A DNA stretch of 64,000 nucleotides, taken from assembly GCA_031441465.1 (NCBI GenBank), contig JANOEP010000011.1, positions 74,557 to 138,556 of the forward strand, written 5' to 3'. Under the pieces are notes generated by a model. That model did no database searches. It worked only from the letters and a program-made list of their open reading frames with translations, and was not told where the DNA came from. The DNA comes from a bacterium (GTDB taxonomy: Bacteria; Krumholzibacteriota; Krumholzibacteriia; LZORAL124-64-63). Below, piece after piece: positions 1 to 57,378 of the stretch (its first letter is position 1; every line of letters begins with the position of its first letter). Both the position numbers and the translations under genes were made by a program.

Positions 1-1140
1 GCACGCCGCCGCCGGCCGCTGCAGGGGCGTCGGCGCCCCCTGGCGCGGCGGCGCGTGGCAGGCGCTGCAGGCCACGGCGAGGTGGGCGCCCTGCAGGCCG
101 AAACCGGTGGAGTCGTGGCGCGCGACCGTGAACGACGACGGTTTGAAGCCGTTCACGGTGTGGCAGCGGCTGCAGGCGTCGTAGGTGCGTCCCTCGGCGG
201 CCTCCGGGTGGCGGTCTTGGTGGCAGCCGTCGCAGCGCGCGTAGACCAGGGCGCCGCGGGGCGCGTCCGCGCGGTGGCAGGCGTCGCAGCGCAGGGCCGT
301 GTGGCGCCCCCGCAACGGGTAGCGGGTGCGATCGTGGTCGAAGTCGCCGCCGGCGACCCGCCGCCAGTCCGCGGGATCGTGGCAGCGGGCGCAATCGGCG
401 CCGAGGGAGCCGGCGTGGGGGTCCTTGTGGCAGGCCGCGCAGCTCGCGTGCTCGACGGGGCGGTAACGGTGCCAGGTGTCGGCAACGCCTTCGACGGTCT
501 CGGTCGTCGCCCGGTGGCAGCGGTCGCAGGCCAGGTCGCGGTGTTTCCCTGCGAGGACGAAGTCGGCCTTGGCGTGGTCGAACCCGGGAGCGGGCTTCCA
601 GGCGTCCGGCGTGTGGCAGGTCGTGCAGGCGCCTTCGAACTGGCCACGGTGTTCGTCGCGGTGGCAGTCCAGGCAACCGGCGCCGAGGCCCAGGTAGGTG
701 CGGCCGGGGTTCTTGCCGCGGTCGCGGACGAGGGAGACGTCCTGGAGCAGATCCGCCCGGTGGCACTTCCGGCAGTCCAGCTTCCGGTGGGCTCCCGCCA
801 GCGGCCACCCAGCCGCAGCGTGGTCGAAGGCGGCCGGGCCGGCCGGCCAGTGGATCAGGTCGAAGTCGCGACCCTGGTGCTCGACGTGGCAGGTTGTGCA
901 GCGTTCGTGGCCGGCGGTGGCGTGGAGTCCGCGTCCCGCGGCCACCCGCGTGGCGATCTCCTGGTGGCAGGCCAGGCACTTCGGGCCGACTTTCTGGTCG
1001 CCCAGCTCGTGGCAGGACGTGCACGCACGGACGCCCTCCAGGTGCTCGTGAACGCGGGAGAGCTTGCCGGGCGACAGCTGCGCCGCGGCGAGGACCGGGA
1101 ATCCCGCAATCAGGACAATATTGATCGCAAAATGAGACAC
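1..1140 (-). CDS. Multiheme c-type cytochrome (at least 13 CxxCH), 3' end runs off the window
   Basis: Not in the ORF track because it has no stop in the window. Manual translation from GTG at 1140 gives MSHFAINIVLIAGFPVLAAA-QLSPGKLSRVHEHLEGVRACTSCH..., a signal peptide followed by 13 complete CxxCH motifs in 380 codons, in repeating FDH..L.G.H..CxxCH units. Confidence 0.93.
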   Translation of the reverse strand, partial: MSHFAINIVLIAGFPVLAAAQLSPGKLSRVHEHLEGVRACTSCHELGDQKVGPKCLACHQEIATRVAAGRGLHATAGHERCTTCHVEHQGRDFDLIHWPAGPAAFDHAAAGWPLAGAHRKLDCRKCHRADLLQDVSLVRDRGKNPGRTYLGLGAGCLDCHRDEHRGQFEGACTTCHTPDAWKPAPGFDHAKADFVLAGKHRDLACDRCHRATTETVEGVADTWHRYRPVEHASCAACHKDPHAGSLGADCARCHDPADWRRVAGGDFDHDRTRYPLRGRHTALRCDACHRADAPRGALVYARCDGCHQDRHPEAAEGRTYDACSRCHTVNGFKPSSFTVARHDSTGFGLQGAHLAVACSACHAPPRQGAPTPLQRPAAAC

Positions 1141-1145
1141 ACGTC

Positions 1146-1979
1146 TCAGAACACCCATCGGTACCCCAGGGCCACGGTTACGGCCACGTGGATCACCATG
1201 ATGACCAACATGAGGTAAGCAAAGGGTTTGTGGATGACGTGCCAATAGTGGAACAACTCCCGGATGCGGTTGTGGAACAGGATTCGACGACCGAGCAAGA
1301 CCCGCGCCTTGGCGGCCGCCAGGACCGTCATGGAGGCCCCGGCCGGCAACTGCTTTCGTAACCGCATGCCCAGCAACATGTTGCTCAGAGGCAGGCGCCA
1401 CAGGCTGCCGCTCGCCGTGGTGGCGGTCGCCAGGGTGGACATCGTGCGCGCGTCCAGCCCGTGAGCCTCGCGCAGCAGACGGTCGGCCTCCTCGAGCTGG
1501 AGCTGGATCTGTTCGATGGTCATGGCTTCGCCCAGCACGTTGCGCGGCAGTTGCAGGTACAGATACCGTCCGAACACGCCGCTGAGCGCCACGGCCATCA
1601 TGGACCAGTAGCTCACTGCGACCAGGCCCTGGACCTTGAGCGAAGTGTGCAGCGTCACCAGCAGAGGTCCCGAGATTCCCAGGAAGATGTGCCCGTCGAG
1701 CCAGCGCGCGATGTGCCCTTTGCCGGCAAGCCCGTGCCAGCGCTTGCGCAGGGAGTAGAGCAGCAGCAGCAGGATCTGCAGGCTGCCGACGATGCCCAGG
1801 CCGTGGCCCACCGTGCCGGCCGGACGCAGGCTGCGGAAATCCGGGTGGTGGGGGCGCAGGTCCAACGGCAGGCTGTAGTAGTCGATTCCGACCACGAGCA
1901 GCCAGGTGATCGCGGCGGCGAGCAGGAGATAACTGAATCGCAGCACGATGCGGAACCCGCGGGTGCTCCCGGCGGCCAT
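1146..1979 (-). CDS. His-rich multi-pass membrane protein, probable partner of the multiheme cytochrome
   Basis: ATG at 1979 after an AAGGAG RBS. Several TM segments carry His (GHGLG, WLDGHIFLG, LHTS, WHVIHKPF, IHVAV). Its stop is 5 bp before the cytochrome start. Confidence 0.75.
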   Translation of the reverse strand: MAAGSTRGFRIVLRFSYLLLAAAITWLLVVGIDYYSLPLDLRPHHPDFRSLRPAGTVGHGLGIVGSLQILLLLLYSLRKRWHGLAGKGHIARWLDGHIFLGISGPLLVTLHTSLKVQGLVAVSYWSMMAVALSGVFGRYLYLQLPRNVLGEAMTIEQIQLQLEEADRLLREAHGLDARTMSTLATATTASGSLWRLPLSNMLLGMRLRKQLPAGASMTVLAAAKARVLLGRRILFHNRIRELFHYWHVIHKPFAYLMLVIMVIHVAVTVALGYRWVF

Positions 1980-2170
1980 GGCGTCTCCTTGTCGGTCAAC
2001 GGATTCGGGCGGCATCATTCTAGGCTCTCTTGCTTCCGATACAACCAGTATGTCGTGTCGCAAATGGTTGTCCTGGAGCGGCGGAGGTGATAGTTTTCCC
2101 CACATGCCCGGTGCCCCGGCGGAGCGATCCCGGGGCGCCCCTTTTTCCGCGTGTGATGACGGAGGTGTCC

Positions 2171-12499: not shown

Positions 12500-12617
12500 G
12501 CTGGTCTCCTCTCGGGACTGGTCCGGCGGGGTGCGCGGGTCGCCGCAGGGTAGGGGCGGTGTCGGAAATTTGCCAGTCGCCCGCGACCTCTGCAAGGGAA
12601 TTCGGCCGCAGCCGGGT

Positions 12618-13202
12618 TCAGGCGCAGGGGTGACCCAGGTGGTAGGTCTGCAGGATGGCGGCCGCCGCCCGCGCGTCGTCGACGGCCCGGTGCAGCTCGA
12701 AACCCCCGCAGATGCCCATCTTCTCGAGGATCGATTCGAGGTTCTGGCCGCTGGTGCGGTGGTGGTTCGCGGCCAGCCAGGCGGTCGCCACGGCCCGGAT
12801 GTCGAAGGCGCCGCCGGCGATGTGCGTGCGGTAATCCAGGCCGCAGGCCTCGCACTCCCGCCGCAGCAGCGGGATGTCGTAGTAGACGCCGAAGGCGGCG
12901 ATCATCGAGCGGTTGCGCGGTCCGTACCAGTCCAGGAAACGCCGGCCGACGACCGCGAAATCCGGGCGGTCGGCGACCATTTCCGGCGTGATCGAGGTCA
13001 GGCGCGTGATGAAGGGGGTGACCGGGTATTCCCGGGGCCGGACCAGCTCGCTGAAGACGTCGACGGTCTCGAGACTGCGGCGGTCCAGGCGGACGGCGCC
13101 GATCTCGATGATGTTGCTGCGCTCGACGGTGTTGTCGCCCTCGTCGGATTCGGGACAGGTGGCCTCGAGGTCGATCACGACGATGTCGGCGGAGTAGCGC
13201 AA
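12618..13202 (-). CDS. DEDDh 3'-5' exonuclease (ERI1/KapD-like)
   Basis: VIDLEATC, IIEIGAV, YDIPLL, HRAVDDA; TTG start after GGAGG. Confidence 0.88.
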   Translation of the reverse strand: MRYSADIVVIDLEATCPESDEGDNTVERSNIIEIGAVRLDRRSLETVDVFSELVRPREYPVTPFITRLTSITPEMVADRPDFAVVGRRFLDWYGPRNRSMIAAFGVYYDIPLLRRECEACGLDYRTHIAGGAFDIRAVATAWLAANHHRTSGQNLESILEKMGICGGFELHRAVDDARAAAAILQTYHLGHPCA

Positions 13203-13310
13203 GATTCCCTCCGGGATGCGGGCACGCGGCGGCCGCCACCGTAGCACGGCCGCGCCCGTCGCGCCAAGTCCGCGATTGACGGCGGATGGCGAGCGATTAC
13301 TGTAGACCGC

Positions 13311-15212
13311 ATGCAGACCTACCTGCGCGTCTTGCGACTCGTGCGCCCGTACCTGCCTCAGGTGCTGGTGTCGATGACCTTCATGGCCGTCTTCTCGTTG
13401 CTGAGCGGCCTGAGCATCGTCATGCTCGCCCCCTTCCTCGACGCCCTGTTCGCCCCCGAGAACGCCACCTTCGTCGCCGCGCCGCCCCCCGTGGCGACGA
13501 CCGCGCCGGCCGACACCCTCGCCGCCGCCGTCGCCGACCTCGGCGGGCGGGTGCAGCAGTTGCAGGACTCCTTCTCCATGAGCGGCCTGCGCGACCGGTT
13601 GCAGGGCGCGCTGAACGGCTGGCTGCTGCGCGGCTCGAAGGCAGAGTCCCTGTGGCGCATCGTGGTGGTGTTCTTCTGCCTGATGCTGCTGAAGAACGTC
13701 GCCGGCTACCTGCAGGCCGTGTTCACCGACTACGTCCAGCTCAGCCTGATCCGGGACCTGCGCAACCGCCTCTACGAGCGCTTCACCGAGCTGCCGCTGG
13801 CGTTCTACCACCGGCACCGCGCCGGCGAGCTGATCAGCCGCGCCACCAACGACGTCCTGGTCGTCAACCGCAGCGTCAACGTCAGCTTCACCAACACGGC
13901 GCGCGATCCGCTGCTGGTCGTGATGTACCTGGGATTGGCCGTGCTGCTGAGCTGGAAGCTGACCCTGGTGGCGCTGGTCCTGCTGCCGCTGAGCCTGGTG
14001 ATCATCGTGCGCATCGGCAAGACCCTGCGGCGGTACAGCCGGCGCCAGCAGGAGAAGATGGCCGTGCTGACCTCGCGCCTGCAGGAGACCATCGCGGGCA
14101 TCCGGGTCGTCAAGGCCTTCACCAACGAGCCGGCCGAGAACGCCCGCTTCCGCGCCGAGTCGCAGATGCTGTTCCGCGACCTGTTCAAGATCGCCCGCGC
14201 GCAGCAGATCTCGTCGCCCCTGACCGAGCAGCTCTCGGTGCTGGTCGGCCTGTTCATCCTCTGGTACGGCGGCCGGCAGGTCCTGGCCGGCGGCGAGCTG
14301 CCGCCCCAGCTGTTCATGCTGTTCCTGTTCTGCATCTTCTCCCTGGGCAAGCCCATCAAGGCGCTCAGCCAGGTCAACAACGCCGTCCAGGAGGGTATCG
14401 CCGCCGCCGAGCGCGTGTTCGCGATCCTGGACGAACCCCAGACGGTGGTCGAGAAGCCGGACGCGCTCGTGCTGGACGCGGTGCGCGGCGAGGTGGAGCT
14501 GCGCGGGGTGCGCTTCAGCTACGACACCGGCGAGGAGGTCCTGCGCGGCGTGGACCTGCACGTGCGGCCGGGGGAGGTGGTGGCCCTGGTCGGCCCCAGC
14601 GGGGCGGGCAAGTCGACGCTGATCGACCTGATCCCGCGGTTCTACGAGGCCACGGCGGGCGCCGTGCTGGTCGACGGCCACGACGTGCGCGACGTGACCC
14701 TGGCCTCGCTGCGCGGCGCCATGGGTCTGGTGACGCAGGAAGTCATCCTGTTCAACGACTCCGTGCGCAACAACATCGCCTACGGCATGGCCTCGGCGCG
14801 GCAGGAGGAGATCGAGGCGGCGGCGAGCGCGGCCAACGCCCTGGACTTCATCCAGCAGCTGCCCCGGGGTTTCGACACGGTCATCGGCGACCGGGGCCTC
14901 AAGCTCTCCGGCGGGCAGCGGCAACGGCTCTCGATCGCCCGGGCCATCCTGAAGAACCCGCCGATCCTGATTCTCGACGAGGCGACCAGCGCGCTGGACA
15001 CCGAGAGCGAGCTGCTGGTCCAGCAGGCCATCGACCGTCTGGTGCGCAACCGCACGACCATCGTCATCGCCCACCGGCTCAGCACCATCCAGAACGCCGA
15101 TCGCATCTGCGTGCTCCAGGCGGGCCGCATCGTCCAGATGGGCTCCCACGTAGAGCTCCTGGCCCGCGGCGGCCCCTACCGCCAACTGCACGACCTCCAG
15201 TTCCGGGCCTGA
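13311..15212 (+). CDS. ABC exporter, fused permease/ATPase (MsbA-like)
   Basis: TMD followed by GPSGAGKS, LSGGQRQR, ILDEATSALD, IAHRLST. Confidence 0.93.
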   Translation: MQTYLRVLRLVRPYLPQVLVSMTFMAVFSLLSGLSIVMLAPFLDALFAPENATFVAAPPPVATTAPADTLAAAVADLGGRVQQLQDSFSMSGLRDRLQGALNGWLLRGSKAESLWRIVVVFFCLMLLKNVAGYLQAVFTDYVQLSLIRDLRNRLYERFTELPLAFYHRHRAGELISRATNDVLVVNRSVNVSFTNTARDPLLVVMYLGLAVLLSWKLTLVALVLLPLSLVIIVRIGKTLRRYSRRQQEKMAVLTSRLQETIAGIRVVKAFTNEPAENARFRAESQMLFRDLFKIARAQQISSPLTEQLSVLVGLFILWYGGRQVLAGGELPPQLFMLFLFCIFSLGKPIKALSQVNNAVQEGIAAAERVFAILDEPQTVVEKPDALVLDAVRGEVELRGVRFSYDTGEEVLRGVDLHVRPGEVVALVGPSGAGKSTLIDLIPRFYEATAGAVLVDGHDVRDVTLASLRGAMGLVTQEVILFNDSVRNNIAYGMASARQEEIEAAASAANALDFIQQLPRGFDTVIGDRGLKLSGGQRQRLSIARAILKNPPILILDEATSALDTESELLVQQAIDRLVRNRTTIVIAHRLSTIQNADRICVLQAGRIVQMGSHVELLARGGPYRQLHDLQFRA

Positions 15213-15294
15213 GTTTCCGGATTCCCGTGCAACTCCGGGCCGCGCGGCTGCGTAGCTACGCCACCGATCCAACGCCGCACCCGGAGGTTGAGCC

Positions 15295-15861
15295 ATGACC
15301 AGGACCCTACGACCCACCCTGTTCCTGATCGCCCTGCTGCTCGCCGCCCTCGCCGCGCTGCCCGCGGCGGCCCGCGACCGCGAGCGCGTCGTCACCGTCA
15401 TCGACGAGGACGGCGAGACCTTCGTCTGCCGCTTCGAGGATGGCCAGGGCCTGCGCATCTTCGACAAGTCCTCGGGCGAGGAGGTCTTCGCCTTCGACGT
15501 CGCCGAGTTCGAGGCGACGCTCGGCGACGCGATGAAGGAGGTGCAGGCGGTGATGGCCGACCTGGACCTGGACATCCGGGCCACGTCCGGCGGCGACCAC
15601 GTGGTCTTCGCCTGCGACGGCGAGACGGTCGAACTGGACCTCGAGGCCGCCATGGAGGGGGTCTTCACGACCCTGGCCGCGCTCGACGACATCGACATCG
15701 ACGTCGGCGAGATCGTCCGCGAGGCCGGGGAAGAGCACGCTCACCGTCACGACGGCGCGGGCGGCGAGATGGGTTCCCTGCAGGAGGAGCTCGACCAGCT
15801 GCGCCGCGAGATCCGGGAGTTGAAGCAGGAGATGCAGCAGGAGCGGGACAGGTCCCGCTAG
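15295..15861 (+). CDS. Secreted acidic hypothetical protein with C-terminal coiled coil
   Basis: Signal peptide, GGAGG RBS, genome-typical codon usage. Confidence 0.7.
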   Translation: MTRTLRPTLFLIALLLAALAALPAAARDRERVVTVIDEDGETFVCRFEDGQGLRIFDKSSGEEVFAFDVAEFEATLGDAMKEVQAVMADLDLDIRATSGGDHVVFACDGETVELDLEAAMEGVFTTLAALDDIDIDVGEIVREAGEEHAHRHDGAGGEMGSLQEELDQLRREIRELKQEMQQERDRSR

Positions 15862-20630: not shown

Positions 20631-21847
20631 GTTGTGCCGTCGAGATTGTGTCCGGCCGCGCCATCGGTTAGCGCGGCCGGCTCTCGTTTCATCCTCTCAC
20701 ATCGCGTAGCTCAACTCATGCCGCCGCTGCCGCGGCAACACCCGCGTGCTGACCGTGCGCCAGTAGTACTCGGTCCAACGCGCCGGCAACTCGATGCGGC
20801 TCACGAACAACCGACGTTCCAGCAACTCACTCACCGAGAGCCGCCTGTCGAACATCCCGCGCGCCTGCGCCGGCGTCGGGCTCCCGCGCTCCTTCTCCCG
20901 CCTGCCCTTCATGTAGTTCCGCCACACCAGGAACACCGCCAATCGCTCCGCGCTCGACTGCCGGCGCTTCGACCACGCGATCGTCTCGCGCTTGTGGTTC
21001 GCGCTGCTGTGGCGGATCAACAGGTCCAGCAAGTTGAACGGGAACAACGGGTTGCCCGCATCCCGCCGCTCCCGGCTCGACGTCACTAGGTGGGTCGATT
21101 CGCAAGGCAACCCCTTCAGGACCCGCGGGTAGATCTGGTGCTCGTCACTCAAGACGGTCACCCGCCGTTGCCCGCCGGTGACCACCTCCAGCAGATGCTT
21201 CACGTCCTTGAACACGGCCTTGGAGTCCGGCCGGCCAAGGCGGGCTTCCAGCCGCTGGCGCTTGCGCTTCTGCGCCTTGGTCATGCGGCCGCTGCGGCGG
21301 ACCTCGCTTTCGGTGAAGTAGATCATGAAGTCGGTGTCCGTCTCTACGGCCAGGTGGTGGTGGAAGGGCCAGTACTGGGAATGCTCGAAAGAGACGAAGC
21401 CGTCGATGGCGAACTGGTCGGCCGGCTTGGCGGACTGCATGCGTTGGGCGTGGTAGAGCAGGCAGTGGCGGCCGAGTCGGCCGAGTTGGCGGTCGATGGT
21501 CGAGGGCGCGACGAGCAGGTCCCTGGCGATCTGTCGGTTGGCCATGCAGCCGGTGGTCTTGGTCAGCAGTTGTGGGAGGATGTCGGGTCGTTTGAGCCAG
21601 TAGGAGGTGGCGAAGGTCTGGGAGCTGAAGGAACGGCGGCAATGGAGGCAGAGGAACCGCTGGATACGGTTTGGGCTGAGGTGTCTACGGTAGTAGCCGA
21701 TGCGTTTGAAGCGCCAGCCGGCGATCAACTGCTTGTGGTAGCAGCAGTTGGGGTTGGGGCAGTGGGGTGGAATGAATCTGGTGCCGATGGTGCGCATGTC
21801 CGGCCCGAGGCATCAAGCGGGCCGGACACATTTTCGACGGCACAACT
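20630..21847 (-). mobile_element. IS1/IS1595-related insertion sequence, copy 1 (1218 bp)
   Basis: 28-bp terminal inverted repeats AGTTGTGCCGTCGA(G/A)A(T/A)TGTGTCCGGCC (26/28 match); paralogous to 56161..57378; no flanking duplication. Confidence 0.88.
20697..21797 (-). CDS. Transposase (Zn ribbon, HTH, DD-N catalytic domain)
   Basis: [52 protein letters not shown]. Confidence 0.85.
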   Translation of the reverse strand: MRTIGTRFIPPHCPNPNCCYHKQLIAGWRFKRIGYYRRHLSPNRIQRFLCLHCRRSFSSQTFATSYWLKRPDILPQLLTKTTGCMANRQIARDLLVAPSTIDRQLGRLGRHCLLYHAQRMQSAKPADQFAIDGFVSFEHSQYWPFHHHLAVETDTDFMIYFTESEVRRSGRMTKAQKRKRQRLEARLGRPDSKAVFKDVKHLLEVVTGGQRRVTVLSDEHQIYPRVLKGLPCESTHLVTSSRERRDAGNPLFPFNLLDLLIRHSSANHKRETIAWSKRRQSSAERLAVFLVWRNYMKGRREKERGSPTPAQARGMFDRRLSVSELLERRLFVSRIELPARWTEYYWRTVSTRVLPRQRRHELSYAM

Positions 21848-26748: not shown

Positions 26749-28767
26749 ATGACACGCTCCACGCGATGCATCCGCCCGTTCACGGGTGTCGCCGGCTCGA
26801 TCGCCCTGCTGGCCGTCTTGCTGACCTCCCTGCCGGCGCCCGCCGTCGCCGGCACCGTCGCGCCCGATCCGACCGCCCATCGGCGCCAGGAAGCAGCGAC
26901 CAAGGCCCGTCTGGCCGCCGCCGCGACCCGCGCCGATGCGCAGAGGACCGCCGGTCAGGACCTGTACGATGTCCTGCACTACGACCTGGACCTGACGCTG
27001 GCGCCCGCGTCGCACCTGCTGACCGGGCAGGTCGCGACCACCGCCCGCATCGTGGGCTCGCCCCTTTCCACCCTGGACCTGGACCTGAAGTCGACGATGG
27101 TGGTGACCGCCGCGACGGCCGGCGGCGCGCCGACCACCTGGACCCGCATCGGCGACGTGCTGACCGTGGCGTTGGATCGTGCCTACGTCCCGGGCGAAGT
27201 CGTCACCGTGTCGGTCGCCTACCGGGGCAATCCCGCCGGCAGCTACTTCGGCTGGAGCAGCGTGGGCGGCCAGCCCATGATCTGGACGCTGAGCGAGCCC
27301 TACGGTTCCCGGGACTGGTGGCCGTGCAAGGACCTGAACACCGACAAGGCCGACTCGGTGGCCGTGCGCGTGACCGTGCCCGACGGGCTGATCGTGGCTT
27401 CCAACGGGCTGCTGGCATCGGAAGTCGACAACGGCGCGACCCGCACCTTCCAGTGGCGCACCGGTTACCCCATCGTGCCTTACCTGGTCTCGCTGGCGAT
27501 CTATCCCTACACGCGGTTCTCCCACTGGTACACGCCGCTGGCGGGCGGCGACCCCATGGAAGTGCAGTACTTCGTGTACCCGAGCCACTACGATGCGGTC
27601 CAGGCGAATTACGCCAAGACCGTGCCGATGATCACGGTCTTCGCCCAGGCGTTCGGGGAGTACCCCTTCGTGCAGGAAAAGTACGGGCACGCGGAATTCG
27701 TCTGGGGCGGCGGCATGGAGCACCAGACGCTCACCAGCCTCGGCGGCTACGGCGAGGACCTGATCTCCCACGAGCTGGCGCACCAGTGGTGGGGCGACAT
27801 GATCACCTGCGCCGACTTCCAGCACATCTGGCTCAACGAAGGGTTCGCCACCTGGTGCGAGGCCTACTGGCGGGAACAGACGGCGGGCGTCGCCACCTAC
27901 CGCGCCTACATGGACGCCGCCGCCTACATGGGCCCCGGCACCATCTTCGTCGAGGACCCGAGCGACTTCTGGGGCATCTTCGACGGCAACCTGAGCTACA
28001 ACAAGGGCTCGTGGGTCGTGCACATGCTGCGCGGGGTGCTCGGCGACGAGGACTTCTTCGCCGGCCTGGCGGCCTACCGCGACCAGTACGCCTACGGCAG
28101 CGCCACCACGGAACAATTCCGCGACGTCATGGAGCAGGTCTCGGGCCGCGACCTGGACGCGTTCTTCCAGCAGTGGATCTACGGGGAGTACTTCCCCTTC
28201 TATTACTACGACTGGGAGACGACCGCCCACGCGGACGGCCTCGTGCTGAACCTGGCCGTGACCCAGGCGCAGGCCAACACCGGTCTGTTCGCGATGCCGC
28301 TGCCGGTGCGCGTGACCACCACGGCCGGTGTCGTGGACACCGTCGTCTGGAACGACGCCGCGCTGCAGTCCTACCGGATCGCGGTGCCCGGCGCGGTGAC
28401 CGGCATCGCTCTGGACCCCGACGGCTGGATCCTGTGCGAGAAGGCGGCTGTCCCGCTCATGGGGACCGCGGCGCCGCAGGTCCCGGTCCCTGGGACGCCC
28501 CGATTGACCTGCGCCCCGAACCCGTTCAATCCCGAGACCGAGGTCGTGGTCTCCACCGCGTCCGCGGGTCGCGTGGACCTCTCCGTGCACGACGCCGCCG
28601 GCCGCCTGGTCGGAGTGCTGTGCGCCGGCGACCTGCCCGCCGGCGAGCACCGCTTTCGTTGGCGGGGTCGCGACGAGGCGGGCCGCGCCGTCGCGTCCGG
28701 CGCCTATTACCTGCGCCTGCGCACGCCGGCGGGCGACGTGTTGCGGCCCGTGGCGTTGGTGCGTTGA
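26749..28767 (+). CDS. Secreted M1 aminopeptidase with C-terminal FlgD-Ig/T9SS-like domain
   Basis: GGMEH, HELAHQWWGD..NEGFA; tail PNPFNP..DAAGRLV..W.GRD..G..VASGAY. Confidence 0.92.
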   Translation: MTRSTRCIRPFTGVAGSIALLAVLLTSLPAPAVAGTVAPDPTAHRRQEAATKARLAAAATRADAQRTAGQDLYDVLHYDLDLTLAPASHLLTGQVATTARIVGSPLSTLDLDLKSTMVVTAATAGGAPTTWTRIGDVLTVALDRAYVPGEVVTVSVAYRGNPAGSYFGWSSVGGQPMIWTLSEPYGSRDWWPCKDLNTDKADSVAVRVTVPDGLIVASNGLLASEVDNGATRTFQWRTGYPIVPYLVSLAIYPYTRFSHWYTPLAGGDPMEVQYFVYPSHYDAVQANYAKTVPMITVFAQAFGEYPFVQEKYGHAEFVWGGGMEHQTLTSLGGYGEDLISHELAHQWWGDMITCADFQHIWLNEGFATWCEAYWREQTAGVATYRAYMDAAAYMGPGTIFVEDPSDFWGIFDGNLSYNKGSWVVHMLRGVLGDEDFFAGLAAYRDQYAYGSATTEQFRDVMEQVSGRDLDAFFQQWIYGEYFPFYYYDWETTAHADGLVLNLAVTQAQANTGLFAMPLPVRVTTTAGVVDTVVWNDAALQSYRIAVPGAVTGIALDPDGWILCEKAAVPLMGTAAPQVPVPGTPRLTCAPNPFNPETEVVVSTASAGRVDLSVHDAAGRLVGVLCAGDLPAGEHRFRWRGRDEAGRAVASGAYYLRLRTPAGDVLRPVALVR

Positions 28768-36775: not shown

Positions 36776-37141
36776 GTGAACGACCGCAAGGATCTGATCC
36801 GCGCCTACAAGGAGACCGTGCAGCCCGCCGGGATCTACGTCGTGCGCAATATCATCGAGGGCAAGCTGCTGCTGGGCGCCAGCCGCAACCTGCCGGCCAG
36901 CCTCAACGGCCAGCGCGCTCAGCTGCGCTTCGGCGGCCACCGTAGCCGCGCCCTGCAGTCCGACTGGAACCGCCTCGGCGAGGACGCCTTCGTCATCGAG
37001 GTGTACGAGGAACTGAAGCCGTCCGAGGGCAACCGCGAGGTGCTCCAGGCGGACCTCGAAGCCCTGCTTGCCCTGCTGATCGCCGATCTGCGCCCCTGGG
37101 ACGAGCATGGCTACCATCCACCGCCGCGAGAGGGGAAGTGA
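36776..37141 (+). CDS. Small GIY-YIG-like protein
   Basis: AGIYVVRN..LLGAS, LQSDWN..GEDAF; AAGGAGG RBS. Confidence 0.75.
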   Translation: MNDRKDLIRAYKETVQPAGIYVVRNIIEGKLLLGASRNLPASLNGQRAQLRFGGHRSRALQSDWNRLGEDAFVIEVYEELKPSEGNREVLQADLEALLALLIADLRPWDEHGYHPPPREGK

Positions 37142-37273
37142 AGGCACCGGCCTTGCAATTGACCACGACCGTCGCAACTGCTTGATTTTTCAATAGCTTG
37201 TACAATTCGCCATGATGGGGGGATGCGCGCCGGCTTATTGCACATTTGTCAATTATCTTGATACTACAGATTC

Positions 37274-37292
37274 ATTGTGATATAGTCACAAT
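37274..37292. promoter_or_regulatory. Palindromic candidate operator upstream of the OmcS-like gene
   Basis: ATTGTGA-TATAG-TCACAAT inside an AT-rich intergenic region. Confidence 0.55.
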
Positions 37293-37386
37293 ACTGTCAA
37301 CATACCGACAGAACTGTTTGTCGCTCTGCATGTTCGGCCCAAAACGCATGATTCCCGAACACCGCATTCCAACACGGGGGATTTAG

Positions 37387-38505
37387 ATGCGGACTTTTCA
37401 ACAGGCCATGATCGTCGTCGCCTCGCTGACGTTGGGATGGGCGCCGGTCCAGGCCTTCCACGATGGCGGCGTCGCTTACTGCGCAGGCTGCCACACCATG
37501 CATGTGAGCCAGAACGGCGGCCCCGGCTACCACGGGACACCGGGCGGCAACCCTGATCTGCTGATGTACGGGAACGCCACCGACACGTGTGTGCGTTGTC
37601 ACTATTTCCGCGGTCAGATCTCGAACGGCCAAGGCCAGGGGCCGGGTGGGGATTTCTACTGGCTGACGCGCACGTTCACCTGGACCACGCCGGGGGGAAC
37701 GACGGGGAGCAGTCCCGGCCACACGCACGGACACAACGTGGCCTGCAACGTGTTCAACATTCCTGCCGATCCGGTTCTCCAGCAGGCGCCCGGCGGGGAA
37801 TTCCTCAGCAACGAACTCGGCTGCACCAGCTGCCACGATCCCCATGGCAACAGGAATTTCCGCATGCTCTACGATTCGCAGCTCGGCCCCAGGTACGTAG
37901 GTGATACGCGATTCGCGTTCACGGCCGACGCACCGCTGGCCCGCGGCAATGCCGGCACCACGCTGGTCGGCGGCGGCGCCAACGAAACCGACGCCCGGCA
38001 TACCGTCTACAAGAGCGGTTTCAGCGAGTGGTGCGCCAACTGCCATCCGTCGATGTTCGAAACAGCCGGCGGGCAGTACATGCATCCCGCCGGCGTCGGG
38101 CTCACGCCCACGATCGCTGACCGTTACAACGGATACGTGAGCACCGATGATCCGGATGGCGGCATCCAGGCCGCATCCTACATGGGCCTGGTGCCTTTCG
38201 AAGCGGTCGATGTCGATCTGTCCTCGGTCGATCCCGCGAACTCGACGTCAGGTCCCGCGGCCGGCGACCAGGTGATGTGCCTGTCCTGCCACCGCGCCCA
38301 CGCGTCGCCGTTCGCCGACGCCGGGCGCTGGGATTTCGCCGCCACGTTCCTGGTTGCGGATTCGCATCCCCGGATAGGTGACGGCGGCGCCTCTGCACAG
38401 GACATCGCCAACCGCTATTACGGGTACACCTTCACGCCCAACCAGCGCTCGTTGTGCAACAAGTGCCACGTCAAGGACTTCGGAGACGCGCCGTACACTC
38501 CCTGA
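37387..38505 (+). CDS. OmcS-like hexaheme c-type cytochrome
   Basis: Signal peptide then FHDGGVAYCAGCHTMH; six CxxCH; PGGDFYW, GHNV, APGG, CTSCHDPHG, SEWCANCH, HPAG, CLSCHRAHAS, QRSLCNKCH. Confidence 0.92.
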   Translation: MRTFQQAMIVVASLTLGWAPVQAFHDGGVAYCAGCHTMHVSQNGGPGYHGTPGGNPDLLMYGNATDTCVRCHYFRGQISNGQGQGPGGDFYWLTRTFTWTTPGGTTGSSPGHTHGHNVACNVFNIPADPVLQQAPGGEFLSNELGCTSCHDPHGNRNFRMLYDSQLGPRYVGDTRFAFTADAPLARGNAGTTLVGGGANETDARHTVYKSGFSEWCANCHPSMFETAGGQYMHPAGVGLTPTIADRYNGYVSTDDPDGGIQAASYMGLVPFEAVDVDLSSVDPANSTSGPAAGDQVMCLSCHRAHASPFADAGRWDFAATFLVADSHPRIGDGGASAQDIANRYYGYTFTPNQRSLCNKCHVKDFGDAPYTP

Positions 38506-38516
38506 GTTGTGCGGAG

Positions 38517-38548
38517 GCGGCCGGGAGCCCCATCCGGCTTCCGGCCGC
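38517..38548. terminator. Hairpin between convergent genes
   Basis: Stem GCGGCCGGGAGCC / GGCTTCCGGCCGC. Confidence 0.6.
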
Positions 38549-38579
38549 TGTCCCGATCGGCAAGTGTGGCCAAGTCCTC

Positions 38580-40712
<2,133 letters not shown>

Positions 40713-42666: not shown

Positions 42667-43454
42667 CCGCCGCGGCCGTCGCGATCGTGCTGCTGCTGCT
42701 GGCCGGCTGGGCCGCGGCCCGCGCCCTGCGCGCCGCCGGCGAATGGCGCACGGCACCGCGCGGCCGGCGTCCCTTCGCCGCGACGGGCGCGCATTACCGC
42801 CGTTGCTACGACCGGCGCGGGTTCCTGATCCTGGGCGGGGTGGCGCTGGCCGCCTTCATCATGGCGCACACGGGGATCGACGAGGCGATCGACCGGGCCC
42901 ACGCGCGCCGCGTCCGCGGCCCGCGCAGCGACGCGGCCGTCGGCATCCTGCGCGGGTTCGGCCGGCGGCCGTGGTTCCTGGTCTGGGGGGCTTTCGGGCT
43001 GCTCGACGGCTTGGTCGCGACGACACCGCTGCTGCGCTGGGGCCGGCGCAACTTCGAGGCCATGGTCGTCGGCCTGCCCGCGCTCTGGTCGCTGCAGTTC
43101 GCGGGCGGCGCCTCGCGCCCCACCGACCCGCCAGGCGATGCGCACTGGCGTCCCTTCCGCGACGACAACACCGCGTCGGGCGACACCTTCGTGGCCGCCG
43201 TGCCCTGGCTCAACGCCGGCCGCACCGTCGACGAACCCTGGTTGCGACGGCTGGCTTGGCTGCTGAGCTGGGGGCCGGGCTGGGGGCGGCTCAACGACCG
43301 CAAACATTACGCGAGCCAGGTGATGTTCGGCCACGAGATCGCCGCGCAGGCGGTCAGGTCGGTCGCCGCCACCGACACCGCCGCCGCCGATTACCGCACG
43401 AGCGTCATCCGCCCGCCGCCGCTGCCGCTGCGAGATTCCACGCGATACAGGTAA
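42663..43454 (+). CDS. PAP2-like membrane protein with degenerate motifs
   Basis: G.SRP, ASGDT, RLNDRKHYASQV; overlaps the convergent gene by 64 bp. Confidence 0.65.
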   Translation: MTAAAVAIVLLLLAGWAAARALRAAGEWRTAPRGRRPFAATGAHYRRCYDRRGFLILGGVALAAFIMAHTGIDEAIDRAHARRVRGPRSDAAVGILRGFGRRPWFLVWGAFGLLDGLVATTPLLRWGRRNFEAMVVGLPALWSLQFAGGASRPTDPPGDAHWRPFRDDNTASGDTFVAAVPWLNAGRTVDEPWLRRLAWLLSWGPGWGRLNDRKHYASQVMFGHEIAAQAVRSVAATDTAAADYRTSVIRPPPLPLRDSTRYR

Positions 43455-44617
43455 ACACCCGAGGGCAGCGCCGCACCCGCGGCGTCCCGCCCCTCCCAGA
43501 GCACGGTCTGCGCACCGGTCGGGGCATTCCAGTCGCGCGACCAGATCGCGCGGCCGGCGAGGTCGTGCACGGTCAGGCGCACCGCTCCGGGCTCTGCGAC
43601 CGCGAAGCGGATGGTGGTCGCCGGATTGAACGGGTTCGGGTAGTTGTCGACCGCCAGCAGCAGGGGCGCGTCGGGCACGGGGGTGCCCTGCTCGTCCATG
43701 TCCCAGATCGTGCCGTTGACGGTGTAGGTGACGAAGCCCGTCGTCGCGACGACGATGTGGCCGTTGGCGATCGTGCGCATGCCGGCGGGGTAGGTGGAGG
43801 TGGAGCCTTGGGCGGTCTGGTAGACGTAGGCGCCGGCGGCGGACAGGCGATTCAGCGCGTCCTGGCTCGGGTGGCCGTAGCTGCTGCTGGTCGGCACCGA
43901 GATGATCGCGACCTCGGGCGTCGTCGAATTCAGGAAAGAGGTGTTGCTGCTGGTGAACGAACCGTGGTGGTTGACGTGGAGGACCTCGATGTCGCCGGCC
44001 TCGAGGCCGACCGACGTCTCGACGTCCTGCTCGCTGCTGTAGCCGCCGGTCAGATCGCCCGCGACCAGGAAATCGAAATCCCCGCTCTGGATCAGCAGGG
44101 CCATGCAGTAGGCGTTTTCCTGGGTCGAACTGGTGAAGGGCGACGGCAGCGTGCCGTTGCCGTTCAACGCGATGACCGTGGCGGTCACGCCGTCGCCCAG
44201 GTCGATCACTTGGCCGTCGACCGCGGTGTGCCGCTTGGCGGCCACCGCGTTGGCGTACGAGGTGTAGGTGGCGGTGGTGTAGGTCCAGCCCCGGTCGTAG
44301 ACCGCCTGGGCGACGCCGACCGCGTTGTAGACCTCGTCGAGGCCGCCGATGTGGTCCTCGTGGTAGTGGCTGGCGGCCATGTAGTCGAGGGTCGTGATGC
44401 CGTGGCTCTGCAGGTAGGGGACGATCACGCTGTTGCCATCGCCGTTCTCGCCGCCGTCGAACAGCAGGGTCTTGCCGCTGGAGGAGACGATGAGCGTGGC
44501 GTCGGCCTGCCCGACGAAGAGGCAGTGGATCGTCACCCCGGCCAAGGCCGGCAAGGCGGATAGGCTCACAAGCAGGGCGGTCACCCAAACCCGCGTCCGG
44601 ATGCTCTGGGAGGTCAT
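43391..44617 (-). CDS. Secreted ComEC/Rec2-like metallo-beta-lactamase-fold hydrolase with FlgD-Ig/T9SS-like tail
   Basis: VGQADA, SHYHEDHIGG, GDL, NHHGS, YGHP; tail NYPNPFNP..DLAGR..SGVYLYR. Confidence 0.88.
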   Translation of the reverse strand: MTSQSIRTRVWVTALLVSLSALPALAGVTIHCLFVGQADATLIVSSSGKTLLFDGGENGDGNSVIVPYLQSHGITTLDYMAASHYHEDHIGGLDEVYNAVGVAQAVYDRGWTYTTATYTSYANAVAAKRHTAVDGQVIDLGDGVTATVIALNGNGTLPSPFTSSTQENAYCMALLIQSGDFDFLVAGDLTGGYSSEQDVETSVGLEAGDIEVLHVNHHGSFTSSNTSFLNSTTPEVAIISVPTSSSYGHPSQDALNRLSAAGAYVYQTAQGSTSTYPAGMRTIANGHIVVATTGFVTYTVNGTIWDMDEQGTPVPDAPLLLAVDNYPNPFNPATTIRFAVAEPGAVRLTVHDLAGRAIWSRDWNAPTGAQTVLWEGRDAAGAALPSGVYLYRVESRSGSGGGRMTLVR

Positions 44618-56160: not shown

Positions 56161-57378
56161 AGTTGTGCCGTCGAAATTGTGTCCGGCCGCGCCACAGGTT
56201 GACGCGGCCGGCTTTCGTTTCATCACCTCACACCGCGTAGCTCAGGTCATGCCGCCGCTGCCGCGGCAACACCCGCGTACTGACCGTGCGCCAGTAGTAT
56301 TCAGCCCACCGCGCCGGTAACTTGCTTCGGCTCACGAACAACCGCCGCTCCAGCAGATCCCGCACCTCGAGTCGCCGGTCGAGCATCCCCCGCGCCTGCG
56401 CCGGCGTCGGACTCCCGCGCTCCTTCTCCCGCCTGCCCTTCATGTAGTTCCGCCACACCAGGAACACCGCCAATCGCTCCGCGCTCGACTGCCGTCGCTT
56501 CGACCACGCGATCGTCTGGCGCTTGTGGTTCGCACTGCTGTGACGGATCAACATGTCTACCAAGTTGATCGGGAACAACGGGTTGCCGGCGTCCCGCCGT
56601 TCCTGGCTCGAGGTCACCAGGTGGGTCGATTCGCAAGGCAACCTCTTCAACGCCCGCGGGTAGTCCTGGTGTTCGTCACTCAAAACGGTCACCCGCCGCT
56701 GCCCGCCGACAACCACCTCCAGCAGATGCTTCACGTCCTTGAACACGGCCCTCGGGTCGGGACGACCATGGCGGGCTTCCAACCGCCGGCGTTTGCGCTT
56801 CTGCGCCTTGGTCATGCGACCGCTGCGGCGCAACTCGCTGTCGGTGAAGTAGATCAGGAAGTCGGTGTCCTTCTCCACGGCCAGGTGGTGGTGGAAGGGC
56901 CAGTACTGGGATTGCTCGAAGGTGACGAAGCCGTCGATGACGAACCGGTCGGCCGGTCTGGCGAACTGCATGCGCTCGGCGTGGTAGAGCAGGCAGTGGC
57001 GGCCGAGCCGGCTGAGCTGGTGGTCGATGGTCGAAGGAGCGACGCGCAGGTCCCTAGCGATCTGTCGGTTGGCCATGCAGCCGGTGGTCTTGGTCAGCAG
57101 CTGGGCCAGGATGTCGGGTCGCTTGAGCCAGTAGGAAGTGGCGAAGGTCTGGGTGCTGAAGGATCGGCGGCAGTGGAGGCAGAGGAACCGCTGGATACGG
57201 TGCGGGCTGAGATGTCGCCGGTAGTAGCCGATGCGCTTGAAGCGCCAGCCTGGGGTCAACTGCCTGTGGTGGCAGCAGTTGGGGTTGGGGCAGTGGGGCG
57301 GGGTGAACCGGGTGTCGTCGGTGTGCATGCTTGGCCCGAGGCATCAAGTGGGCCGGACACAATCTCGATGGCACAACT
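56161..57378 (-). mobile_element. IS1/IS1595-related insertion sequence, copy 2 (1218 bp)
   Basis: 28-bp TIRs (26/28 match) flanked by the direct repeat CATGGCAAG (56152-56160 and 57379-57387). Confidence 0.92.
56228..57328 (-). CDS. Transposase, paralogue of 20697..21797
   Basis: Same 366-aa length; about 47 aa differences by manual count. Confidence 0.87.

Follow-up and report, generated by a model that had tools for sequence, protein, structure and literature searches.

An accessory gene for an OmcS-family hexaheme cytochrome, and its paralog in an osc-like cluster, in a Krumholzibacteriota genome

The window, a 64,000-nucleotide stretch of bacterial DNA, contains a gene for a hexaheme cytochrome that almost certainly belongs to the OmcS family. 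The explanation that best covers all of the observations, to which we give a probability of about 0.6, is that the protein is a Sec-exported cytochrome of this family, proposed to form wires by way of osc-like machinery. The parts of the gene and of its product are listed below.

37387..38505, + strand: coding sequence of the OmcS-family hexaheme cytochrome, 372 residues and a stop codon; the ORF bounds are exact
37387..37455, + strand: signal peptide, residues 1–23, predicted cleavage after A-x-A
37456..38502, + strand: mature protein, 349 residues, starting F-H
37459..37461, + strand: His25 (mature His2), predicted distal ligand; 139/139, His in OmcS
37480..37494, + strand: CxxCH 1 (CAGCH), both Cys and the His in 139/139 aligned sequences
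37501..37503, + strand: His39 (mature His16), predicted inter-subunit ligand; 135/139, pairs with OmcS His16
37588..37602, + strand: CxxCH 2 (CVRCH), conserved in 139/139
37732..37734, + strand: His116 (mature His93), predicted distal ligand in the GHN block; 138/139, His in OmcS
37822..37836, + strand: CxxCH 3 (CTSCH), conserved in 138/139
37843..37845, + strand: His153 (mature His130), predicted distal ligand in the DPH block; 138/139, His in OmcS
38032..38046, + strand: CxxCH 4 (CANCH), conserved in 139/139
38083..38085, + strand: His233 (mature His210), predicted distal ligand in the HPAG block; 139/139, His in OmcS
38278..38292, + strand: CxxCH 5 (CLSCH), conserved in 139/139
38299..38301, + strand: His305 (mature His282), predicted distal ligand in the RAH block; 139/139, His in OmcS
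38455..38469, + strand: CxxCH 6 (CNKCH), conserved in 139/139

Several features described in a sequence-only reading of this DNA, namely a signal peptide, the two mature termini and exactly six CxxCH motifs, are borne out. The 23-residue leader (MRTF...APVQA) is hydrophobic and ends in A-x-A. Its cleavage site is based on the alignment to the PDB chain, in which residue 24 pairs with residue 1 of mature OmcS, and the A-F-H junction is conserved across the homologs of alignment A1; together, the alignment to the mature OmcS chain and the conserved A|FH junction identify a Sec signal peptide followed by an F-H mature start. The 372-residue translation gives the mature N-terminus as FHDGGVAYCAGCHTMH and the C-terminus as ...RYYGYTFTPNQRSLCNKCHVKDFGDAPYTP. 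The CxxCH motifs number exactly six and lie at residues 32–36, 68–72, 146–150, 216–220, 298–302, and 357–361.

In a phmmer search of 177,635 PDB sequences, OmcS (6EF8/6NEF) was found with an E-value of 5.5e-46 and was the sole match at E≤1, the aligned stretches being residues 24–168 and 200–364 against OmcS 1–160 and 223–407. The six CxxCH motifs follow the same order as in OmcS, and their 12 Cys columns are conserved in 138–139 of 139 homologs. Exactly 12 His columns are conserved among these homologs, which come from many phyla; they are the six CxxCH histidines and His25, 39, 116, 153, 233, and 305, each present in 135–139 of the 139 sequences. In OmcS, the distal His of the heme at CxxCH 5 is supplied by the neighboring subunit. 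An OmcS subunit is described as having 12 axial His ligands, 11 of its own and one from its neighbor (10.1101/492645; PMC9473688). The same further six histidines occur in both proteins, His16 among them: all six predicted distal ligands, for which the sequence-only reading had proposed a check, are present here and are His in OmcS too, and precursor His39 pairs with OmcS His16, so that the claim of a histidine at the same mature position holds. In the HMMER alignment with 6ef8_A every shared block it had named can be seen; we find there the N-terminal 16 residues, PGGDF.W, GHN, APGG, CHDPHG, SEWCANCH, HPAG, CLSCHRAHAS, and QR.LCNKCH.KD. The idea that in the short branch His114 and His205 act as a further pair of ligands was rejected, the two columns showing no co-variation (69 H/H, 26 H/R, and 25 A/H of 139).

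An AF2 model built on the 139-row alignment (pLDDT 91.3, pTM 0.87) replaced one built on a 26-row alignment of close relatives, which had a pLDDT of 38.9. When the model was compared with the PDB by Foldseek, 6ef8_A (E 3.8e-24, TMq 0.76) was the only match at E≤0.001 among 42 matches at E≤10. VIA-align superimposed residues 24..364 of the model on 6ef8_A 1..407 with a Z-score of 33.1 and an rmsd of 2.4 Å over 326 residues at 37% identity; the identity to OmcS is 32–37% by Foldseek and VIA-align. In this confident model the protein is predicted to carry the OmcS subunit fold, and it also has the same F-H mature N-terminus and the same C-terminal QR.LCNKCH.KD block. The mature proteins differ in length (349 versus 407 residues), the window's protein being about 58 residues short of OmcS. 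Most of the missing residues fall behind heme motif 2 and in the interval from motif 3 to motif 4, and an 8-residue C-terminal tail extends past the OmcS end. The description of the protein as a shorter OmcS homolog therefore stands, with all heme ligands and the OmcS fold in the shorter chain. OmcE and the archaeal cytochrome filaments resemble OmcS in that an adjacent subunit contributes a His and the stack of hemes is insulated (PMC9473688, PMC13712944); neither was matched by sequence (phmmer against the PDB, E≤1) or by fold (Foldseek, E≤0.001).

The host is not Geobacter. The best taxon-named matches of its RpoB are Krumholzibacteria (85% and 74–77% identity), and among the 120 matches listed the taxon-named ones are eight Krumholzibacteria and one Gemmatimonadales. 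RpoB places the genome in the Krumholzibacteriota, an FCB-group phylum, in agreement with the earlier suggestion of a probable FCB-group organism and contrary to an origin of the contig in Geobacterales or Desulfuromonadales, which that reading had named as a finding that would overturn it. The OmcS family spans many phyla in both the homolog search and the tree. Within the tree, the protein falls in a 62-row clade of Krumholzibacteria-type sequences (support 99), which branches with support of 100 part from a 50-row half of Thermodesulfobacteriota, Nitrospirota, and Myxococcota; it lies in the FCB/Acidobacteriota branch, at a clear distance from that of Geobacter, and belongs to the shorter OmcS branch of FCB-group and Acidobacteriota bacteria. 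That an unrelated genome received the gene recently from Geobacter or another member of the Desulfuromonadales is hardly credible on this evidence, and the tree rejects it for Geobacter; the identity to OmcS of 32–37%, against 64–82% to relatives in the protein's own bacterial family, speaks the same way. What such a transfer would explain is that the gene is present or absent as a single-gene unit and that its GC3 (0.81) is below that of the C19 paralog described below and of the neighboring gene (0.95–0.96). Given a GC3 below that of its neighbors, the gene may have arrived later and serve another role; in the question of gain or loss at this site, the low GC3 favors an older acquisition.

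The gene stands alone in its surroundings, in a segment whose parts are these.

37129..38580, no strand: 1.45-kb segment with only the promoter, the OmcS-like gene, and the hairpin; present in G000 and G166, replaced by 88–184 bp in G167–G170
37258..37286, + strand: sigma-70-like promoter, TTGATA, 17-nt spacer, TATAGT, with TG before the −10 element
37275..37291, no strand: 17-nt near-palindrome over the −10 element, occurring once in the 3.49-Mb genome
38517..38548, no strand: GC-rich hairpin with 13-nt arms (92% complementary) and a 6-nt loop

Homology to four other genomes ends at window positions 37128–37135 and restarts at 38581–38586. The gene is found at this site in two of the seven species of the genus and is missing there in four of the six other species. 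The promoter matches the consensus at 10 of 12 positions (two sites were found, against a shuffle mean of 0.4), and the same promoter block, TTGATC-17-TATAAT, lies upstream of the G166 ortholog, where the 17-nt palindrome is perfect. The near-palindrome is possibly an operator; as the mark of a regulon it was rejected, given its one occurrence in the genome and the looser CRP/FNR-like patterns that occur only one to two times. The hairpin, between the convergent OmcS-like and prolyl-oligopeptidase genes, is a probable terminator; lacking a T run, it went unflagged in the terminator scan. Neither terminal direct or inverted repeats nor flanking repeats were found, and the segment was rejected as a mobile element. 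Genes within 10 kb include those for PEP carboxykinase, glutamine cyclotransferase, a 121-aa ORF, prolyl oligopeptidase, RluA, and the like; none of the osc-like companion genes is found within this distance, and they are absent as well from the two closest orthologous loci (L005 and L006). The layout of the locus shows the gene as an accessory, monocistronic unit, equipped with a sigma-70-like promoter and a hairpin of its own, among unrelated housekeeping neighbors, a status that the sequence-only reading did not mention. In the flanking gene, G166 has 87% nucleotide identity to G000 and the species without the OmcS-like gene 91–92%; that G166 shares the gene despite its more distant flank favors ancestral presence and later loss.

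The same genome encodes a second OmcS-like protein, also absent from the sequence-only reading:

contig C19, 9768–10889, − strand: OmcS-like paralog (locus L003), 373 aa, 59% identical to the window's copy

This paralog is present in all seven species of the genus; in the tree, the window's copy forms a separate 18-row clade. The two proteins share the ligand set and are almost identical in the N-terminal 16 mature residues and in the heme-5 block. They differ in surroundings. The C19 paralog lies upstream of hemE/hemN and directly downstream of the other genes of a set comprising an outer-membrane beta-barrel (with an aromatic terminal residue), an LpoB-like lipoprotein, a 345-aa protein, a Rotamase_2 peptidyl-prolyl isomerase (PPIase), a 42-heme cytochrome, and an NHL propeller; Pfam finds Rotamase_2 with SurA_N_3, NHL, 21 Paired_CXXCH_1 stretches, and the LpoB-like protein. 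Among 75 loci with OmcS-like genes, including those of Geobacter and Geomonas, homologs of the C19 proteins occur within 10 kb of the OmcS-like gene as follows: the lipoprotein at 41, the PPIase at 24, the multiheme cytochrome at 32, and the NHL protein at 39. By BLAST against the genes beside the Geomonas and Geobacter OmcS-like genes, the C19 lipoprotein gives E-values of ~1e-25 to 1e-31, the PPIase ~1e-7 to 1e-9, and the multiheme cytochrome ~1e-77 to 1e-130; the barrel is a weak match (E 6e-4), and the 345-aa protein gives no match. The gene order is that of the Geomonas locus L048.

Judged from gene order and these matches, the C19 set is collinear with the osc (omcS-companion) cluster of Geomonas and Geobacter, with the same domain types in the same order. 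Here, too, as in Geobacter, there are several OmcS-like genes in one genome; the Geobacter paralogs are given as omcT, omcJ, and oscC (PMC13194489). OscH is assigned to folding, OscE, F, and G to secretion, and OscD to morphology (Shen et al. 2025, quoted in PMC13194489), and the Osc letters of the Geomonas and C19 genes are assigned by gene order and by the GSU numbers that the same source gives. An osc-like cluster is thus encoded in the genome of the window's gene but not beside that gene, which in this respect and in the phylum of its host differs from OmcS. The C19 paralog, which sits beside the osc-like assembly cluster, is the better nanowire candidate of the two.

The proposed working starts from a genome that encodes CcsA and ResB, in which CcmE was not found; these genes show a System II pathway of cytochrome c maturation. 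Heme attachment in the periplasm would come first, and the osc-like machinery, acting in trans, would then serve folding and the passage through the outer membrane. Subunits would stack head to tail, His16 of one completing a heme of the next, to give an insulated heme wire for extracellular electron transfer, either as a filament of its own or mixed with the core paralog. Electron transfer outside the cell or at its outer surface is probably the function of the window's protein, and for the predicted formation of filaments by this copy we consider the chances even. A homo-dimer prediction (residues 24–372, two copies, alignment A2, four hemes, no controls) gave an ipSAE of 0.00 in both runs, which speaks neither for nor against binding. 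His16 is present in 135 of the 139 family members, so finding it does not tell filament formers apart from other paralogs. To our knowledge, filaments have been observed for only one of the Geobacter OmcS paralogs, OmcS. What OmcS filaments do physiologically is itself a matter of dispute (PMC11077965).

The window's copy may instead, though this seems somewhat unlikely to us, be a monomeric hexaheme cytochrome of the periplasm or outer surface, with His39 closing its own heme 5. As such it would shuttle electrons, perhaps linking periplasmic carriers with filament or porin-cytochrome systems whose genes lie elsewhere. An orphan accessory gene with unrelated neighbors and a patchy distribution would suit this role, as would the divergence from the cluster copy into a separate clade. 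Orphan OmcS-like genes are common, 26 of the 75 loci (several of them short) having none of the four companion types nearby, and Geobacter keeps several OmcS paralogs (PMC13194489). Against a monomeric shuttle, the protein retains all known features of the OmcS filament, that is, the 12 axial histidines, the fold, and a nearly identical N-terminal arm; the near equality with the cluster paralog in that arm and in the heme-5 block, and the assembly-type machinery in the same genome, count against it as well.

The direction of electron flow raises another alternative, in which the protein would take up electrons for the high-affinity oxidase of a microaerophile, with Fe(II), a cathode, or a partner cell as their source. 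The genome does encode a cbb3-type oxidase, whose CcoN scores 672.8 bits and exceeds the cut-off; a match to the cytochrome bd family is weaker but, at 44.4 bits, still passes the Pfam cut-off. At L006, a 70%-identical ortholog immediately precedes genes that resemble ccoI and ccoN/ccoP (named from ORF N-termini only), and iron oxidation or reduction has been proposed for a MAG of the Krumholzibacteria that carries both OmcS and Cyc2 genes (PMC7914226). However, such a gene neighborhood in a single relative carries little weight and is absent in the window, and multiheme wires are reversible, so that sequence cannot give the direction; uptake rather than export is improbable as the specific role. 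The preferred reading, a Sec-exported and wire-forming cytochrome, can be extended to a wider picture that is speculative and that we consider unlikely in its entirety: Krumholzibacteriota would build OmcS-type filaments with an osc-like machine, and the window's gene would be an exchangeable single-gene alternative subunit that comes and goes as a 1.45-kb unit of promoter, gene, and hairpin. It would rely in trans on the resident machine for a second or mixed wire, possibly for electron uptake feeding the cbb3 oxidase instead of metal reduction.

OmcS genes were reported in a Krumholzibacteria MAG in 2021 by FeGenie markers, with iron reduction or oxidation as the proposed function (Dalcin Martins et al., PMC7914226). 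That gene is of the same kind and from the same phylum, and that paper contains no analysis of ligands, fold, paralogs, or neighborhood. In view of this report and of a family spread over many phyla, the surprise implied earlier at finding an OmcS-type subunit outside Geobacter was overstated. What is new here is the accessory single-gene unit with its own promoter, in two of seven species, and the core paralog within an osc-like set.

The known picture of the OmcS family is unchanged by the present findings. Experimental demonstrations of cytochrome nanowires come from very few organisms, and genomic surveys suggest that the OmcS family is widespread. The cytochrome filaments we know of are all from Geobacter-type bacteria and archaea; OmcS-type filaments of Krumholzibacteriota, if real, would extend them well beyond these groups. 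The locus provides a concrete candidate pair in an uncultured FCB-group phylum, a core copy with an osc-like cluster and an accessory, stand-alone copy. The pair could be used to test whether the shorter, non-Geobacter relatives of OmcS polymerize and whether a subunit must be encoded beside its assembly genes, and it bears on the role of Krumholzibacteriota in redox cycling with iron or electrodes.

The OmcS-like gene spans 372 codons without a break, with GGGGGA 7 nt upstream of its ATG.

Features at the site (window positions)
36776-37141, plus strand: 121-aa ORF just upstream
37258-37286: sigma-70-like promoter (TTGATA, 17 nt, TATAGT, with TG ahead of the -10 element)
37387-38505, plus strand: OmcS-like hexaheme cytochrome gene
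38517-38548: GC-rich hairpin, 3' of the OmcS-like stop codon

Precursor residues 1–23 form a hydrophobic leader with A-x-A at its end, and residue 24 pairs in the phmmer alignment with the first residue of mature OmcS as deposited in the PDB. The mature protein has 349 residues, with the N-terminus F-H-D-G-G-V-A. It contains exactly six CxxCH motifs (residues 32, 68, 146, 216, 298, and 357), and near its C-terminus the QRSLCNKCHVKD block is present, with eight further residues after it. The open frame and the alignment to mature OmcS thus bear out the signal peptide, the six motifs, and the OmcS-type termini claimed in the sequence-only reading, and every OmcS block named there is visible in the alignment. 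A thirteenth cysteine, Cys120 (37744–37746), lies outside the heme motifs; this position is Cys in 3 of 139 homologs and mostly Ala or Ser elsewhere.

The protein is a genuine OmcS relative. A phmmer search of 177,635 distinct PDB sequences gave OmcS (6EF8/6NEF) as the single match at E ≤ 1 (E 5.5e-46), in two stretches covering residues 24–168 and 200–364. A generic doubled-CXXCH domain was the sole match above cut-off in Pfam and NCBIfam, so that no curated family names the protein. The AF2 model computed with 26 close relatives (pLDDT 38.9) was replaced by one based on a 139-sequence alignment of the family from many phyla, with pLDDT 91.3 and pTM 0.87; confidence is lowest in the N-terminal arm (residues 21–50, block means 59–84) and the loop 221–230. 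Foldseek of this model against the PDB listed 42 matches at E ≤ 10, of which 6ef8_A alone (E 3.8e-24, TMq 0.76) passed E ≤ 0.001. VIA-align superimposed model residues 24–364 on OmcS residues 1–407 with Z 33.1, an rmsd of 2.4 Å over 326 residues, and 37% identity, the next chain among the Foldseek candidates having Z 4.9. The phmmer match and this superposition confirm the proposed shorter OmcS homologue; it is about 58 residues shorter than OmcS.

The axial ligands of OmcS are 12 histidines, of which the chain itself supplies 11 and the adjacent subunit one, according to the accessible parts of two reports (10.1101/492645; PMC9473688). Exactly 12 histidine columns are conserved in the 139-sequence alignment and the ligand set of the window's protein is therefore complete. 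The six CxxCH histidines are each conserved in 138–139 of 139 sequences; the six others are His25 (139), His39 (135), His116 (138), His153 (138), His233 (139), and His305 (139), all of which pair with histidines of OmcS in the phmmer alignment. The remaining five histidines are variable. His39 aligns with mature His16 of OmcS, at the same mature position as had been claimed; His16 reportedly ligates heme 5 of the next subunit in the 2019 structure. With 135 of 139 sequences retaining it, His16 is a family-wide feature and thus no marker of filament formers. Each of the four sequences that lack it (L053, L067, L070, and L074) is an additional copy in a Geobacterales locus, and these variants may be unable to polymerise. 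The window's protein was thus shown to possess all the features by which an OmcS subunit is known.

The window, part of contig C11, has a G+C content of 70%, and the assembly comprises 3.49 Mb in 74 contigs (estimated 96.8% complete). Among the 120 matches listed for the first 600 residues of RpoB, eight bear Krumholzibacteria or Krumholzibacteriia names and one is Gemmatimonadales, the others being without a name or labelled just 'bacterium'. RpoB identity to named Krumholzibacteria is 85% and 74–77%. The FCB-group host that had been guessed is thereby confirmed, and the contig does not belong to Geobacterales. The best named matches of the OmcS-like protein itself are from Krumholzibacteria and Eisenbacteria MAGs.

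At 90% identity the search gave 5,227 clusters with E ≤ 0.001 among the 8,000 candidates scored; clustering at 50% identity leaves 696 representatives at E ≤ 0.001, of which 336 reach 1e-10 and 113 reach 1e-30. Scanning species genomes yielded 140 confirmed stretches and a retained set of 75 loci, with record titles from Krumholzibacteriia, Eisenbacteria, Gemmatimonas, Fibrobacteria, Ignavibacteria, Calditrichaeota, Acidobacteriota, Nitrospirota, Alphaproteobacteria, many Desulfobacterota (including Geobacter and Geomonas), and Anaeromyxobacteraceae. Within the window's phylum, matches at E ≤ 1e-20 occur in 57 of 208 species genomes; the figure is 39 of 125 when high-quality genomes alone are counted and 47 of 90 for the window's family, and all 6 other species of the genus have a match. 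Tandem OmcS-like pairs are frequent in the phylum (for example G093:C3:10949-13283, G096:C7:17326-19661, and G097:C8:28801-31139) and recall two adjacent OmcS-like genes in Geomonas.

The FastTree of the 139 sequences has two halves, separated by branches with 100 support: 50 rows are from Thermodesulfobacteriota, Nitrospirota, and Myxococcota, and 89 from the FCB group and Acidobacteriota. The window's protein lies in an 18-row clade (99) and a second copy from the same genome in a 39-row clade (99), both within one 62-row clade (99), which makes the window's copy a paralog from inside its own lineage. Import from Geobacter was rejected by this position within the FCB/Acidobacteriota half.

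The second copy, on contig C19, has 373 residues and is 59% identical to the window's copy, the first 16 mature residues being identical. Copies of the C19 type are present in all seven species of the genus. Companion homologs within 10 kb of an OmcS-like gene were counted from a BLAST comparison of the C19 proteins with every ORF in the 75 loci.

Genes of the C19 cluster, read along the minus strand, with companion homologs near OmcS-like genes
1: outer-membrane-type protein, truncated where the contig ends (at least 583 residues), C-terminus ...VHWSF
2: 196-aa lipoprotein, LpoB-like domain; 41 of 75 loci
3: 345-aa protein, no family matched
4: 438-aa prolyl isomerase, Rotamase_2 and SurA-like N-terminal part; 24 of 75 loci
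5: 1,033-aa cytochrome, 42 CxxCH in 21 Paired_CXXCH_1 stretches (L003, the C19 locus, 12281-15382, minus strand); 32 of 75 loci
6: 332-aa NHL beta-propeller; 39 of 75 loci
7: OmcS-like paralog
Next: hemE, a hemN-like radical-SAM gene, and a HemY-type oxidase gene

At least one of the four companion types was found in 49 loci, all four in 15, and none in 26; loci of cultured Geomonas species and of one Geobacter strain are among those with homologs. In Geomonas silvestris the order is a propeller, two OmcS-like genes, a YNCE-like propeller, a 762-aa protein, an LpoB/GNA1162-like lipoprotein, a 388-aa protein, a Rotamase_2 isomerase, and a multiheme cytochrome, so that its last five genes are collinear with the first five on C19. 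The 762-aa protein matches the C19 barrel weakly (E 6e-4, single comparison), the 388-aa protein gave no match to the 345-aa protein in pairwise comparison, and the multiheme cytochrome has 658 residues versus 1,033 on C19. The C19-type gene set corresponds to the omcS-companion (osc) operon of the literature. OscH is said to be a prolyl isomerase, OscEFG channel-like, and OscD a beta-propeller; by gene order, Osc letters would be assigned to the C19 and Geomonas genes. Shen et al. 2025, as quoted in a 2026 paper (PMC13194489), proposed roles in folding for OscH, secretion for OscE, F, and G, and morphology for OscD; the same source equates oscC with GSU2501 and oscI with GSU2495.

No companion genes were found near the OmcS-like gene in the window or in its two closest orthologous loci (L005 and L006). 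Its neighbours encode PEP carboxykinase, glutamine cyclotransferase, the 121-aa ORF, prolyl oligopeptidase, and pseudouridine synthase, among others. The 121-aa ORF is conserved genus-wide and has no Pfam match at E ≤ 0.001; its N-terminal part (GIYVV.N...GK.LLG.S.NL), by eye, presumably resembles a GIY-YIG motif. The 70%-identical ortholog in L006 (7119-13222) is followed by genes that we read, from ORF N-termini, as putative ccoI-like (metal ATPase) and ccoN/ccoP-like (cbb3 oxidase) genes.

The 6.2 kb around the gene were compared with the genomes of the genus's six other species. The full arrangement is found in G166, which is 81% identical in the gene region and retains the promoter block with an overlapping 17-nt palindrome that occurs once in the window's genome. 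In G167, G168, G169, and G170, homology ends at 37128–37135 and returns at 38581–38586, with 88–184 bp at the site versus 1,450 bp in the window; in G171 the flanks lie on separate contigs. No repeats were found flanking the 1,450-bp segment. GC3 of the OmcS-like gene is 0.81 versus 0.95–0.96 for the paralog and the neighbouring gene. The flanking oligopeptidase gene of G166 is less similar to the window's (87%) than are those of the species lacking the OmcS-like gene (91–92%), which would favour an ancient origin at the site followed by loss. The OmcS-like gene stands alone as an accessory unit and is dispensable within the genus.

System II heme attachment is encoded in the genome (CcsA and ResB, with a second CcsA-like gene on C19); CcmE was searched for there and not found. 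At least 28 ORFs have two or more CxxCH motifs, and the genome also encodes a cbb3-type oxidase, with a weaker cytochrome bd-family match. Window 1–1995 (minus) is part of an ORF with 20 CxxCH (C11:73987-76551) in a locus that extends off the window (L004, G000:C11:71343-76551); downstream on the same strand are an ORF with 13 CxxCH and a 540-aa protein whose last residues, ...LSLRF, are those typical of outer-membrane barrels. The group resembles a porin-cytochrome-type cluster. Contig C22 has two adjacent ORFs with 12 and 28 CxxCH motifs. Elsewhere in the window, an M1 peptidase (26749–28767, plus) and a metallo-beta-lactamase-fold protein (43391–44617, minus) end in a FlgD Ig-like domain (PF13860), which may serve this lineage as a common C-terminal domain for sorting or surface display. 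Two 366-aa ORFs 35 kb apart (20697–21797 and 56228–57328, both minus) have very similar cysteine-rich N-termini, as if both were copies of one transposase-like or zinc-finger gene.

The homolog and the taxon of the sequence-only reading stand, and its nanowire is still a prediction, to which we give about even odds for this particular copy. The protein would be exported by Sec, loaded with heme, folded with the aid of the prolyl isomerase, and passed through the outer membrane by the C19 barrel/lipoprotein complex acting in trans; subunits would then stack head-to-tail, His39 completing a heme of the next one. Key coordination elements are nearly identical between the two paralogs, which makes mixed filaments conceivable. 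The chief alternative is that the protein acts as a monomeric electron shuttle. Filament formation is weakened by the lack of nearby companion genes, the dispensability of the gene, and the roughly 58 fewer residues than OmcS; it also counts against it that, to our knowledge, Geobacter OmcS paralogs have never been seen as filaments.

OmcS homologs outside Geobacter are described in the accessible parts of earlier papers for Anaeromyxobacter and Geoalkalibacter (PMC10954620) and a Coriobacteriales genome (PMC7399161), and the title of Shen et al. 2025 terms the machinery widespread and ancient; FCB-group osc clusters may already be listed in its main text or supplements. Our search for literature linking OmcS with Krumholzibacteriota found PMC7914226 alone, FCB phylum names giving nothing more specific; in its accessible part, this 2021 bioreactor study proposes that the organism behind a Krumholzibacteria MAG with OmcS and Cyc2 genes oxidises or reduces iron. 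The Krumholzibacteriota gene joins an already known family. What is new here is the ligand census over 139 sequences and the confident fold match for the short branch, together with the core-plus-accessory arrangement of paralogs and the presence or absence of a single gene at the site.
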